Below are positions 11,801 through 28,784 of a stretch of 64,000 bases of DNA, in pieces (the first letter of the stretch is position 1; each line of letters opens with the position of its first letter). The notes beneath the pieces are model-generated. The model was not told the origin of the DNA. It saw only the letters and a program-made list of their open reading frames with translations, and made no database searches. The translations under genes were made by a program, and so were the position numbers. Source of the DNA: a virus (Duplodnaviria > Heunggongvirae > Uroviricota > Caudoviricetes); the IMG/VR virus record IMGVR_UViG_3300021066_000001. The stretch is one strand, 5' to 3'.

Positions 11801-12314
11801 GGTCTATTGCAAGGACACGTGTCGTAACTTAACACATCATGTTCGGGATGAAAATCGCCTCATTCACATGTACAACGGCGAAAAGACAGAATGGATAGGT
11901 TTTGATTTTCATGACCATGACCACGTTTATGAGCCAGACCCCAATTTGGATGATGGAATTCCGGCCAACGTGATATCGCTCTCTACGGCGGTCATAGGAG
12001 AGGTTGGAGTGTTCTTGATGCACTTCCCCAAGAAGGGAACGTTCTATCCTGAGCACAGGCACCCGTATGAACACGCCTTGATGCTGGTTGCTGGTTCATT
12101 TATGGTCAAGGTAGACGGCAAGGAAAATATCTTCAAGGCTCCAAAGATCTTATACATCGCCAAGGAGACCGAGCATGAAATTTACGCTCTCGAAGACAAG
12201 TCGGTGGCTTGCTGCTTGAGCAACGCTGTTGGCCAAGAAAGCGTCATTCCTGCGTCTTCAATTCCTCCCTCTGCTAAGCATCTTGTTCCAAGCCACCTAA
12301 TCGTAGACGGTTAA
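11793..12314 (+). CDS. cupin-domain protein
   Basis: PEHRHPYEH...GSFMVKVDG...EHEI cupin motifs. Confidence 0.65.
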   Translation: MYKVYCKDTCRNLTHHVRDENRLIHMYNGEKTEWIGFDFHDHDHVYEPDPNLDDGIPANVISLSTAVIGEVGVFLMHFPKKGTFYPEHRHPYEHALMLVAGSFMVKVDGKENIFKAPKILYIAKETEHEIYALEDKSVACCLSNAVGQESVIPASSIPPSAKHLVPSHLIVDG

Positions 12315-24988: not shown

Positions 24989-25177
24989 TTATCCGATCTT
25001 GTGCTCCAGCTGGTAATACTCATCCTCGGAGATCGTGACGGCGTTCACGAGGAAGTACGGCCCTGACTGCGCACGTTCCTCGAGTCTGAGAGCATCAAGA
25101 CGCCACTTTCCTAGAGACCCTCTCCACACTTCCTCCCCGAGCTGTCCCTGGTGCTCGTACGTGACGAGCCAGTACAT
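24989..25177 (-). CDS. hypothetical protein
   Basis: TGATG coupling with infC. Confidence 0.55.
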   Translation of the reverse strand: MYWLVTYEHQGQLGEEVWRGSLGKWRLDALRLEERAQSGPYFLVNAVTISEDEYYQLEHKIG

Positions 25178-25680
25178 CAGTGTTTTTTCTGGGGTGAGAG
25201 GACCATGATCATCTGCTTGCCCTCGAGCTTGGGATAGCTCTCGACGTTGCCGTGGGCCTTGGTGTCATCTTGAAGCCGCGTGAGCAAAGCGTCGCCGATC
25301 TCTCGATGAGTGATCTCGCGCCCCTTGAACCTGAGAGCGACCTTTACCTTGTGACCGTCAGTGAGAAACTCGATGATCTTTCGCACCTTGATCTTGTAAT
25401 CTCCCTCGTCGACCGACGGACGTAGCTGAATCTCCTTCAGCTCAGGCGTCTTCTGACGTTGGGTGCTCTTTTGGAGCTGGTAAAGGAACTTCCCGTAGTC
25501 GATCATCTTGCAAACGGGCGGCACCGCGGTGGGGGCGAACTCGACTAGGTCAAGATTTTTCTCTTCAGCTAGAGTGAGAGCTTCGAAGACCGTCATGACG
25601 CCCATCTGGTCGCCAGAGGCGGAGACGACTCTAACTTGCGGTGCGGTGATCTCTCGATTGATGCGGTGTCTCTTGTCTAT
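25177..25680 (-). CDS. infC: translation initiation factor IF-3 with non-canonical ATA start
   Basis: RINREITAPQVRVV, LDLVE...PPVCKMIDYGKFLY, KEIQLRP motifs; SD GAGGT 5 nt before ATA, in-frame TAA just upstream. Confidence 0.9.
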   Translation of the reverse strand: MDKRHRINREITAPQVRVVSASGDQMGVMTVFEALTLAEEKNLDLVEFAPTAVPPVCKMIDYGKFLYQLQKSTQRQKTPELKEIQLRPSVDEGDYKIKVRKIIEFLTDGHKVKVALRFKGREITHREIGDALLTRLQDDTKAHGNVESYPKLEGKQMIMVLSPQKKH

Positions 25681-25815: not shown

Positions 25816-26469
25816 TCAATCATCCTTGCCGATGTTGAGCATGTGCAAGAAGATGTTCAGGACGTCTAGGTAGATGCCGATCGCGGCTGAGATGTAGTTG
25901 TCTTCGCCACCGTCGACGACTCGTTGCACGTCCCAGATCAGGTAGAACGAGAAGAGCGGAATCGCGAGGTAAGAGATCCACGTGCCATAGAAGCCAAAGA
26001 CTAGCGCGAGGACCATCAGGCCGAGAAGCGCTAACAAGCTTCCGAAGAGAAAGCCGCCGAAGACGCTGAAGTCGCGCTTGGTGACCATCGCGTAGATCGA
26101 ACAGCCGACGGTGACGAGCGCGGTGCCAGCGAACGCGTTCGCGATGATCATCGGGCCGCCTGGGTTGGTCCAGACCTGATTGATCAACCCGCAGATCGCG
26201 CCACCCTCAAAGAGAGAGAAGGCGAGGAAGAGAGGAACTCCCAACGCGTCGTCTCGAAACGCGTGGGTCAGGAAGATCAAGCCGATGGCGCCGACCAGGC
26301 TGATCACCGCGAAGGTGACGGGGTTCTCGCTACCCCAGGCTGGCAACCCTGCCATGATGCCGCCGATCGTCCCAGCGATCGTGGTGATGAAGCTGAGAGC
26401 GAGCAGAAAGAACGTGTTGCGTAAGACGCGGTTTTGAGCGAAAACGTTTGCAGCTGTCGCGAAGCTCAT
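25816..26469 (-). CDS. yccA: BAX inhibitor-1/YccA family membrane protein
   Basis: about 7 TM segments; VLRNT, WDVQRVV.GGEDNYISAA..IYLDVLNIF. Confidence 0.8.
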   Translation of the reverse strand: MSFATAANVFAQNRVLRNTFFLLALSFITTIAGTIGGIMAGLPAWGSENPVTFAVISLVGAIGLIFLTHAFRDDALGVPLFLAFSLFEGGAICGLINQVWTNPGGPMIIANAFAGTALVTVGCSIYAMVTKRDFSVFGGFLFGSLLALLGLMVLALVFGFYGTWISYLAIPLFSFYLIWDVQRVVDGGEDNYISAAIGIYLDVLNIFLHMLNIGKDD

Positions 26470-26534: not shown

Positions 26535-26945
26535 CTAAAAGAAGTACCGAATTCGTCCCGTTTGCTTCAAGATCTTTTGAACTCCAGCGTCATGAAAGAG
26601 CGGCCCCTTCATGGCTTTCGTGCCGTGGTCGACCGCGTGGTAGCTGTTGCCCCACTTATCGTAGGTGAATCTAGGATTGAAGCCGGGCGGAAGGATGACG
26701 ATCTCGATCTTCGAGTACTCACGAACTTGCTCGACAGTGATCACTCCCGTCTCAGCGTCCCAGTGGCACGCTCCACAGAGCGAGGCTCCGTTAGCAAGGT
26801 AGTATCCGCCGTCCTTAAAGAGCTTGCGGTCGAGGATGTGGTGAGCGTCAACCGCAGGACGCCCGCACTTAGGCACGACGCAGGTGTGCTTGTCTCGCTT
26901 GAAGACGAGCACCTTGAACTCTTCACGAGTTAAAAGACGTTCCAT
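26535..26945 (-). CDS. HNH endonuclease family protein
   Basis: RDKHTC...DAHHI...NGASLCGACH. Confidence 0.75.
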   Translation of the reverse strand: MERLLTREEFKVLVFKRDKHTCVVPKCGRPAVDAHHILDRKLFKDGGYYLANGASLCGACHWDAETGVITVEQVREYSKIEIVILPPGFNPRFTYDKWGNSYHAVDHGTKAMKGPLFHDAGVQKILKQTGRIRYFF

Positions 26946-28018
26946 TGGTTGTTGATGTCTGATCCGAAGATGACAGCGGTCAAGTCAAGGTCCTCTTGGA
27001 GAACCAACCCCTTCCTAGAGAAGCCGTTAACGTGAATGTTTTCGACCATCGCCGAGGCGCCGAGCGCCGTGGTCAACTGGAGAGCCGTCAACCCCCGCTT
27101 TCCAGTCACGGCGGTGCTCCACACCTCGTGCTTAGCTTGGCCGTTGACGACGCCCTTCCCGATGACGGAGATGTAAACGACGTCATCGCTCACCTGAGGG
27201 AGGGTGTTCCTCAGCAGGCCCTCGATCTTCTTTCTAGATAGAGCGAGCTCTTGGAGCATGAACTTGATCAAGTGGTGATGACCGGGATACCTGACCGACT
27301 TGTAATTGAGGTTGCGAACCTTACCCTTCAGAGATTGGGCGAGTGATCCCAGTCCACCTGAGGTTGAGAACGCCTCGAGGTGAACTCCAGCGATCATCAG
27401 CTCTTCTAGATCCTCGAGCGCTGGAACGCGTACTCGCTTCCACCCCTCGATCGCGTCACAGGGATTGATGTACTCGTTGATCAGTCCCTCCAAGCTCCAA
27501 GTGAGCCCGTACTTGAGCGAATTGGTCGGAAAGAGAGGCAGGGCACCTACCCTGAGAAAGAGGTCAAGACACCCGTTTTCCTCACCGTCGGCGAAGCGAC
27601 GATAGATCGAGCCAGCCGCGATGTTGATGATCCCTGGCGCTAATCCGCACTGGGGCATGAGAACGGAGCCGTTGCTCTCGGCGACCGCGCCGTACGTCCG
27701 ATGCATCAAGCTCAGATCGACATCCTCGGTGATGTCGATGTAATTGACTCCGTGGTTCGCACAGATCATGCCAGGCTTCACCGCCCTCATCACTGACACC
27801 GGGAGACAACAGATGACGGTTGTTGCGCTCTTGATCTCGTCAGTGATGACTTTGACGTCTCTTAGATCACGCACGAGACCTAAGTCGGGGTTGTTGTCAA
27901 CGAGTGAGATCCGCCATCCTAGATCTCGCCGCGCGTTAAGCTCCTCGAGCATCAGCGAGACTGCGATTCCAACTCGTCCAGCCCCTAAGATCTTGATGCT
28001 AACTTTTTCTTCGGTCAT
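26930..28018 (-). CDS. saccharopine dehydrogenase-family oxidoreductase
   Basis: GAGRVG Rossmann motif; CGLAPG, TWSLEGLINEY, YKSVRYPGH. Confidence 0.85.
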   Translation of the reverse strand: MTEEKVSIKILGAGRVGIAVSLMLEELNARRDLGWRISLVDNNPDLGLVRDLRDVKVITDEIKSATTVICCLPVSVMRAVKPGMICANHGVNYIDITEDVDLSLMHRTYGAVAESNGSVLMPQCGLAPGIINIAAGSIYRRFADGEENGCLDLFLRVGALPLFPTNSLKYGLTWSLEGLINEYINPCDAIEGWKRVRVPALEDLEELMIAGVHLEAFSTSGGLGSLAQSLKGKVRNLNYKSVRYPGHHHLIKFMLQELALSRKKIEGLLRNTLPQVSDDVVYISVIGKGVVNGQAKHEVWSTAVTGKRGLTALQLTTALGASAMVENIHVNGFSRKGLVLQEDLDLTAVIFGSDINNQWNVF

Positions 28019-28034
28019 CGTTCCCCCACAAAAC

Positions 28035-28299
28035 AGCTTCGGTCCCCGTAAGCGGGATTCTGTTTTATTCCGTCATTCGACTGGCGGTTACGGCCGCCCG
28101 ACGCTCTCGCGATCGTGCCCCAACCCGGAGACTCGTCGAGTAGAGTCATCATCTCCTGTTTAGGTTGCTGCGGGCCAAGTTACGGTTGCCGACCGTGAGG
28201 CCGGTTTACGGCTTTCGCCTGCCCTAGAGCTTGGACACCCACTCTGTGCAGTCCCGACTTTCCTCACCCTTGCGGGCGCGACGGATCGAGACCGAAGCT
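28035..28299 (-). ncRNA. rnpB: RNase P RNA (compact, reduced S-domain)
   Basis: CR-I GAGGAAAGUC, CR-V ACAGAAUCCCGCUUA, P4 AG(U)CGGGA/UCCCGCU with compensatory changes, P1, P3, P5 CUGC/GCAG-CAA, GAAUGAC; promoter -10 TACAAT just upstream. Confidence 0.88.
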
Positions 28300-28334
28300 A
28301 GTGCATTGTAACATGAGAAGGTGTACTTGTATAC

Positions 28335-28784
28335 CTAGAGCTGGTTCCAAACCGCTTCCCAGATCTTTCCCTGTCTCCTCGACAAGAGCATGTGAGCTTG
28401 ATCGAGGCGAATGTAGGTGAAGGCATCTACCTCGGGGTAGAAGATCATGTTCGAGATGAACATCGACTCACACTTCAAGCGCGCGAGAGGGACCTCGTCA
28501 GCGAGGTGAACCGAAAAGAGATGATAGTCCTTGTGGGGCTGGTACTTGAAGCGACCGTGATCTCGCAGCTTGCCTGCACGCTCTCTTAAGTCTAGACCAG
28601 TTTCTTCGAAGCACTCTCGAGCGGCGGCCTCAGCTTCGGTCTCGCTCGGCTCCTTGATTCCCTTCGGAAGGGTCCAGCCGTTGACGTAGTTGGCGCCTGT
28701 CGGGTGAGCGAGGAGAACCCGGCGCCCGGGAACGATCACCGCGAGCGCACAGGTTACGGGATTTTCAACTTGCTCTCTAGCCAT
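28335..28784 (-). CDS. NUDIX hydrolase
   Basis: Nudix box LPKGIKEPSETEAEAAARECFEETGL. Confidence 0.9.
   Translation of the reverse strand: MAREQVENPVTCALAVIVPGRRVLLAHPTGANYVNGWTLPKGIKEPSETEAEAAARECFEETGLDLRERAGKLRDHGRFKYQPHKDYHLFSVHLADEVPLARLKCESMFISNMIFYPEVDAFTYIRLDQAHMLLSRRQGKIWEAVWNQL

Follow-up and report, generated by a model that had tools for sequence, protein, structure and literature searches.

A compact bacterial-type RNase P RNA with a reduced specificity domain in a huge phage genome

RNase P RNA is among the few universal ribozymes and is regarded as a cellular and organellar gene. Here we analysed a 64,000-nt stretch of DNA (the window, to which positions refer unless stated otherwise) from an IMG/VR virus record (IMGVR_UViG_3300021066_000001; 389,331 bp, CheckV completeness estimate 98%), in which a promoter and a 265-nt RNase P RNA gene lie between a NUDIX hydrolase gene and a saccharopine-dehydrogenase-like gene, all on the minus strand. 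Sequence analysis confirmed that the gene encodes an RNase P RNA derived from bacterial type A. The first-pass annotation had described a compact, phage-encoded RNase P RNA and had placed it at the right coordinates, leaving its strand unnamed; the covariance-model (CM) match, the helix audit, covariation and the phage genome bear this description out, with the catalytic domain intact and the specificity domain (S-domain) reduced. Full-text literature searches turned up no publication on an RNase P RNA gene in a phage or other virus, and new here is a phage-borne, S-domain-truncated RNase P RNA of bacterial type.

A class A RNase P RNA at the phage locus

A covariance-model comparison, which the first-pass annotation had proposed, gave a match to RF00010 (bacterial RNase P class A) at 28033–28297 on the minus strand (71.7 bits, E 7.9e-22; permissive Rfam scan of 27900–28450), though below the gathering score. 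The alignment was statistically significant and ran end to end (model positions 1–367), the bacterial class A model was the best member of the RNase P clan for this RNA, and a search of the whole 389,331-bp genome with RF00010 gave a single real match, at the same locus (E 1.3e-22). The gathering score of RF00010 is 100 bits, and a scan of the whole window at Rfam gathering thresholds returned 35 tRNAs and one abiF motif and no RNase P match. Routine annotation thus misses the gene because its score falls below the gathering threshold.

Helices were mapped from the CM alignment, an anchor-based helix audit and a constrained fold (Table 1). The whole catalytic core is kept, comprising P1, P2, P3, P4, P5, the P6 pseudoknot, P15–P17, P18 and the conserved regions (CR) CR-I, CR-IV and CR-V, and P1 closes the molecule exactly at its two terminal nucleotides. 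CR-I reads GAGGAAAGUCGGGAC (abbreviated, GAGGAAAGUC...), CR-IV, in the joining segment J18/2, AGUCGAAU, and CR-V ACAGAAUCCCGCUUA. CR-I, CR-V, a P4 with changes relative to E. coli, and P1, P3, P5 and P15 had all been noticed in the first-pass annotation, and each was found again. P4 is paired at 8/8 positions; relative to E. coli, one pair is flipped, C-G having become G-C, and at the terminal pair A-U replaces G-C, with the bulged U kept. P1 has 12–14 bp, P3 has 5 bp and a GCAA loop, P5 (CUGC/GCAG) is paired at 4/4 positions, and P15 is CCU/GGG. Beyond that list, we found P2 (7/7), the P6 pseudoknot (4/4, GAGU in J5/7 with ACUC in L17), P16 (GGAGAU/GUCUCC, 6/6), P18 with its GAGA loop, J18/2 (CR-IV) and, within the L15 sequence GGGUU, the CCA-binding GGU. 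In type A enzymes, the L15 GGU pairs with the 3′ RCCA of the tRNA. The extra hairpin that follows P18 is missing from the closest relative, L032.

Table 1 Features of the RNase P RNA locus and the CCA enzyme gene (window positions)
Feature	Position	Strand	Evidence or remark
RNase P RNA gene, 265 nt, closed by P1	28035–28299	−	RF00010 match; P1 pairing out to 28299/28035
P1 5′ strand	28287–28299	−	pairs with 28035–28048; 12–14 bp, 12-bp duplex ΔG −22.5 kcal/mol
P2 5′ strand, UCCGUCG	28279–28285	−	pairs with UGACGGA at 28069–28075, 7/7
P3 hairpin, 5 bp, GCAA tetraloop, shortened	28265–28278	−	CM alignment, audit, fold
CR-I and P4 5′ strand, AAG[U]CGGGA, bulged U kept	28251–28265	−	P4 8/8 paired with 28050–28057
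P5 5′ strand CUGC and J5/7 ACAGAGUG, holding P6 5′ strand GAGU	28240–28251	−	helix audit
S-domain remnant, 68 nt	28172–28239	−	P7-like helix, P9-like hairpin, stub hairpin; without P10–P14 and CR-II
P9-like hairpin, GGC-GAAA-GCC	28210–28219	−	within S-domain remnant
Stub hairpin, CCGGCC-UCAC-GGUCGG	28189–28204	−	within S-domain remnant
P5 3′ strand GCAG and J5/15 CAA (3 nt)	28165–28171	−	fold, audit
P15–P16–P17 arm	28118–28164	−	L17 with P6 3′ strand 28135–28142; L15 GGGUU 28122–28126
P18 hairpin, GAGA (GNRA) loop	28099–28115	−	CM alignment, fold
Extra hairpin GGCGG-CCGUAA-CCGCC between P18 and J18/2, P19-like position	28083–28098	−	fold
J18/2 (CR-IV, AGUCGAAU), P2 3′ strand, J2/4, CR-V with P4 3′ strand	28049–28082	−	
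σ70-like promoter: −35 TATACA, 17-nt spacer, TG-extended −10 TACAAT	28305–28333	−	sequence and promoter search
NUDIX hydrolase gene, upstream	28335–28784	−	stop codon abuts promoter
Saccharopine-dehydrogenase-like gene, downstream	26930–28018	−	start 16 nt past P1, 15 nt past model match
CCA-adding/repair tRNA nucleotidyltransferase gene, 368 aa	4668–5774	−	PF01743 73.8 bits; PRK10885 E 1.7e-94

The specificity domain is reduced to a remnant

The first-pass annotation had also called the RNA short at 265 nt, with a reduced S-domain and without a recognisable CR-II. In line with this, the region between the P5 strands measures 76 nt, compared with ~150–210 nt in full-size relatives, and contains no CR-II motif; in the RF00010 alignment, model positions 107–211 (105 nt, covering P10–P14, CR-II and CR-III) are replaced by 25 nt. 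The RNA thus departs from RF00010 class A in the P7–P14 specificity domain with CR-II and CR-III, which forms the T-loop docking module. In the remnant that is left (Table 1), the consensus with L032, the sole close relative of this sub-architecture, has two compensatory pairs. The P7/P8 register is uncertain, and the CM alignment is mismatched in the P7/P8 region. Searches with two patterns aimed at close relatives of the remnant found no further example among viral sequences: AACTTGGCCNGCAGCAAC had 21 viral matches, none of them near CR-I or CR-V and all unrelated, and CTGCACAGAGNGNGTGTCCA had no viral match.

Promoter and flanking genes

A promoter directly upstream, likewise recorded in the first-pass annotation, was recovered by both the sequence and the promoter search. 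Its −10 element ends 5 nt ahead of the first P1 base (28299), placing the predicted start at ~28299; one promoter site was found at the locus against 0.3 expected in shuffles. Downstream of P1, a short U-run is followed by the ribosome-binding site of the next gene, and no minus-strand terminator was found between the RNase P RNA and the saccharopine-dehydrogenase-like gene; read-through is therefore possible. A synteny search by way of the latter gene found no related viral loci. Just downstream of the RNase P RNA region, on the same strand, are genes for an IF3 homologue (IF3_N and IF3_C; 25177–25605) and a Bax1-I family membrane protein (25816–26469).

Relatives in other phage contigs share the core and covary

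We sought relatives in public viral contigs with two conserved motifs, the search patterns including the flipped P4. The motif search gave 27 loci, in ~25 of which RF00010-type RNAs of 200–408 nt were recovered; nearly all of these viral relatives lie inside tRNA arrays, on the tRNA strand, in contigs that reach 488 kb. Two more, L031 and L032, came from a metagenome scan, and L032, closest to the window RNA, also stands alone. The RNAs nearest to that of the window are all viral or metagenomic (L031, L032 and L016) and share only ~70–75% identity with it over conserved blocks. INPHARED deposited phage genomes gave no blastn match to the locus or to the RNA.

Applied to 12 sequences, MAFFT with RNAalifold yielded no more than P2 and portions of P8 and P18, and the anchor-based helix audit was used instead. 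P2 is kept at 7/7 pairs in 19/19 anchorable phage RNAs whose sequences are otherwise very different, and in the 12-sequence alignment (A1) it has no broken pair and double compensatory changes at 6/7 pairs. P4 is 8/8 in 17 of the 19 phage RNAs audited and 7/8 in the other 2. P6 covaries across the relatives (GAGU/ACUC, GAGC/GCUC, GAAC/GUUC, CGAA/UUCG, GGAC/GUCC and ACAC/GUGU), as does P16, which is paired at 6/6 positions in nearly all of them. The window RNA fits the pattern of P2, P4, P6 and P16 at every helix, and compensatory changes separate it from L032 in P2, P3, P15, P16, P6 and the P7-like helix. As read from these alignments, the covariation marks a structure that selection has maintained and not a decaying copy. 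In the S-domain, the mid-size relatives L003, L005, L023, L026 and L027 keep a CR-II-like GUGAAA motif that the window RNA lacks.

Even smaller RF00010-type RNAs, with only ~43 nt between the P5 strands, were seen in the tRNA arrays of two viral contigs, L025 (184 kb; RNA of 200 nt at 12072–12271, minus strand) and L028 (225 kb; RNA of 233 nt at 6801–7033, minus strand); in L028 the flipped P4 position holds an A-C mismatch. The 488-kb viral contig L013 carries a 250-nt RF00010 match (2370–2619, minus strand) with a variant CR-I, GAGGAAGUUC, and, on the same strand, a second, canonical CR-I (3525–3543) ~950 nt upstream of the match with no CR-V within reach, together with a CR-V-like block (1890–1932) ~440 nt downstream of the match; the extra blocks could belong to a second, split or interrupted RNase P-like gene. 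In L016, a 385-kb viral contig, a GOLLD RNA (RF02032, 212 bits; 5070–5488, minus strand) lies ~2 kb from the RNase P RNA in the tRNA array. A cultured-phage example, reached through a match of the full-size relative L011 to 'Microcystis phage MaAM05', was not counted: the region looks bacterial, its RNase P RNA-like match being unannotated and surrounded by fabI, engB and mtgA (L177; MW495066.1, 112820–117972).

The flipped P4 pair was considered as a mark of a phage-only lineage and ruled out as such, since no fewer than 120 contigs of cellular genomes, megabase-size ones among them, carry the same CR-I variant. The carriers are chiefly Acidimicrobiia, with Usitatibacter, Burkholderiales, Lysobacter and Bdellovibrionota also represented. 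Measured from CR-I to CR-V, their rnpB genes span ~240–340 nt, which puts them near or at full size, and they lie away from tRNA arrays; 0/120 of the cellular loci with the flipped pair hold four or more tRNA genes.

The genome is rich in tRNA genes and lacks RnpA

The RNase P RNA gene lies ~96 kb into the 389-kb record. Open reading frames at 159–215 kb of the record have matches in PHROGs to families of baseplate wedge, baseplate hub and virion structural proteins, and by this gene content the genome is that of a huge myovirus-type phage. The genes at the two ends of the record (G000:C1, 1823–2614 and 388058–388888) adjoin each other in a related viral contig (L008:6985–11464), which suggests a complete, circularly permuted genome for which the IMG/VR end class of 'provirus' may be wrong. 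With tblastx, the genome was found to have genes in common with L031 and with L008 elsewhere, without local synteny at the RNase P locus.

In all, 48 tRNA-type genes were counted in the genome, every one of them on the same strand as the RNase P RNA; 33 form a main array, and some spacers are only 1–4 nt long. Most of the tRNAs are ordinary, scoring 50–70 bits on RF00005. Of 36 tRNA genes checked, 32 encode CCA, which makes sense of the retained CCA-binding loop. Five minus-strand tRNA-like genes called by ARAGORN (39662–39737, 39893–39965, 40448–40522, 41030–41102 and 42936–43008) fall below the Rfam tRNA gathering score; all five keep a canonical GGTTCRA T-arm and have an irregular D-arm, and the 'Ser' among them has no long variable arm. 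Elsewhere, a CUA-anticodon tRNA (1448–1522, minus strand), labelled 'Pyl' by ARAGORN, is well formed at 65.4 bits and is likely to be an amber suppressor, and a 93-nt tRNA-Asn(GUU) (43417–43509, minus strand) adjoins a normal 75-nt tRNA-Asn(GUU), its ~18 extra nt suggesting an insertion or intron. The abiF RNA motif (RF03085; 40527–40563, minus strand; 48 bits against a gathering score of 37) lies in the tRNA array, where its neighbours are a tRNA-Phe-like gene on one side and tRNA-Gln on the other.

No RnpA (PF00825) was found in the 389-kb genome, and no RtcB. A weak RNase_T/DEDD exonuclease domain outside the window (G000:C1:129086–129589) was considered as a dedicated tRNA 3′ trimming enzyme and set aside, a 24-bit match being no evidence of one. 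The best NCBIfam match of the CCA enzyme, PRK10885, falls below its cut-off despite the low E value and is the proteobacterial multifunctional Cca, which gives a weak hint at the host. The first-pass annotation had credited the phage with its own machinery for 5′ and 3′ tRNA maturation. This stands as far as an RNase P RNA and a CCA enzyme gene are both encoded; it was overstated in that only the RNA subunit is present, with no RnpA, and the CCA enzyme is more likely to be a repair than a maturation enzyme because 32 of the 36 tRNA genes already encode CCA.

Proposed role of the phage RNase P RNA

These observations allow us to propose that the window RNA is a working ribozyme that borrows host RnpA to process phage tRNA transcripts, a reading to which we give a probability of roughly 0.75 and in which expression, catalysis, the use of host RnpA and the phage tRNAs as substrates are all inferred. 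We suggest that the gene provides the functional catalytic RNA subunit of RNase P in a huge myovirus-type phage. Its own promoter would drive transcription from the first P1 base onwards, and the transcript would fold into a complete bacterial type A catalytic domain. Since the phage has no RnpA, any holoenzyme would have to use the host protein, and assembly would most likely be with host RnpA (C5). The holoenzyme could then cut the 5′ leaders from the polycistronic phage tRNA transcripts (48 same-strand genes, with spacers down to 1–4 nt). The elbow-docking module P10–P14 being deleted, substrate positioning must in this scheme rest on the acceptor stem, on pairing of the 3′ RCCA with L15 (GGU) and on contacts between leader and protein, with no T-loop 'ruler'. 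A mechanism of this kind is supported by precedent, since both the E. coli catalytic domain (C-domain; PMC5839562) and the type T RNAs (PMC3579882) do without the S-domain or most of it.

Several points weigh against this proposal. The match of 71.7 bits is below the 100-bit gathering score of RF00010, and only two sequences, those of the window and L032, underlie the fold assigned to the S-domain remnant. The gene lies outside the tRNA array, 6.3 kb from the nearest tRNA, unlike most of its relatives, and directly ahead of a protein gene without a terminator. The phage has no protein subunit of its own, which makes compatibility with host RnpA an assumption, and C-domain-only ribozymes are less efficient in vitro than full-size ones (PMC5839562).

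The reliance on host RnpA also fits a different role, that of a decoy or sponge that titrates host RnpA or pre-tRNAs and thereby halts or diverts the maturation of host tRNAs: without a phage RnpA, function must go through the host protein, and conservation extends to the protein-binding elements P3, CR-I, CR-IV and CR-V but not to the substrate-docking S-domain, which is lost. A pure decoy, however, would need none of the P4 bulged U, J5/15 CAA, L15 GGU and P6, which serve only catalysis or substrate binding and are kept and covarying, and the relatives lie inside tRNA arrays, where processing is needed; we consider this role improbable. We give slightly less weight still to a decaying relic, that is, a pseudogene of a host-captured rnpB inactivated by the S-domain deletion. 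It would explain why the score is below the gathering threshold, why P10–P14 is lost and why the P7/P8 region aligns to the CM with mismatches, but no core helix carries a disruptive change, the changes that set the RNA apart from its relatives are compensatory, hairpins cap the deletion cleanly and the promoter is well placed. Moreover, similar or smaller forms (200–250 nt) recur in many unrelated phage contigs, which argues for selection.

The remaining question is whether the DNA is that of a phage at all. The IMG/VR end class of 'provirus' and the host-like genes in the region (IF3, Bax1-I, NUDIX and saccharopine-dehydrogenase-like) could point to a host rnpB in a mis-delimited 'provirus' or in a chimeric assembly. 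Yet ~96 kb of the 389-kb record precede the locus, phage structural genes follow later in the record and the 48 same-strand tRNA genes surround the locus, and the adjacency of the record-end genes in the viral contig L008 is consistent with a complete, permuted genome of a phage. It is viral and metagenome contigs, and not cellular genomes, that hold the nearest RNAs, and cellular rnpB genes with the same P4 variant are near or at full size and away from tRNA arrays. A bacterial origin of the locus is thus very improbable, the least probable of these explanations.

If the window RNA is a working ribozyme, what the loss of the S-domain does is a separate matter. The first-pass annotation had suggested that it relaxes elbow recognition and so admits atypical tRNA-like RNAs, which is possible. 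A stronger form, in which the loss is adaptive and a hybrid holoenzyme of phage RNA and host RnpA, no longer measuring the tRNA elbow, could process substrates that the host enzyme handles poorly, seems to us rather unlikely. Were it true, candidate substrates would be the D-arm-aberrant tRNA-like RNAs, tight array junctions and possibly non-tRNA phage transcripts, and the tRNA supply would continue if the host rnpB RNA were depleted or attacked during infection.

A phage-borne RNase P RNA would mean that large phages bring, in addition to tRNAs, the catalyst for the first step of tRNA maturation. The graded miniatures, from 408 down to 200 nt with the window RNA at 265 nt, amount to a natural deletion experiment on the loss of the type A S-domain, and such genes, scoring below the Rfam gathering score, are invisible to standard annotation. 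They could provide compact ribozymes for structural work and engineering, and a way to approach how translation is taken over or protected by phages in infected cells.

Comparison with known RNase P RNAs

The window RNA shares with type A RNAs (E. coli M1 RNA/rnpB, RF00010) the order P1-P2-P3-P4-P5-(S)-P15-P16-P17/P6-P18-P2′-P4′-P1′, as well as CR-I, CR-IV and CR-V, the bulged U of P4, a 7-bp P2, the 3-nt J5/15 CAA, the L15 GGU and a GNRA loop on P18. It differs from them in its length (265 nt vs ~340–400 nt), in the deletion of P10–P14 and CR-II/CR-III, in its shortened P3 and the extra hairpin after P18, in its score of 71.7 bits, and in being encoded by a phage without rnpA. Its flipped P4 pair sets it apart from E. 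coli rnpB, but the same pair is native in Acidimicrobiia and some Proteobacteria.

Two systems resemble it in having lost most or all of the S-domain while keeping the catalytic domain. Archaeal type T RNAs (Thermoproteaceae: Pyrobaculum, Caldivirga and Vulcanisaeta) naturally retain little of the S-domain, and P10 in them either ends in a small cap loop or is absent; they have an archaeal-type core, a 3-bp P2, a 2-nt P5/P15 linker, a shorter P15 and archaeal proteins (PMC3579882). In contrast, the window RNA has a 7-bp P2, a 3-nt CAA linker, P16/P17/P6 and P18 and is of bacterial type; it is thus an analogue of type T by convergence and not a member. Eco CP RPR, the E. coli C-domain on its own, shows activity whether or not C5 is present and requires an interaction of the P6 type (PMC5839562). 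The window RNA likewise has a catalytic domain without an S-domain and keeps a covarying P6, but whereas Eco CP RPR is a laboratory deletion of reduced efficiency, it is a natural gene with a P7/P9-like rod, a GAAA loop and a P18 hairpin. Its closest counterparts are the other phage RF00010-type RNAs (200–408 nt), which have the core in common with it, in many cases together with the flipped P4, and come from genomes rich in tRNA genes; unlike most of them, which lie inside tRNA arrays, the window RNA stands alone under its own promoter, 6.3 kb from the nearest tRNA.
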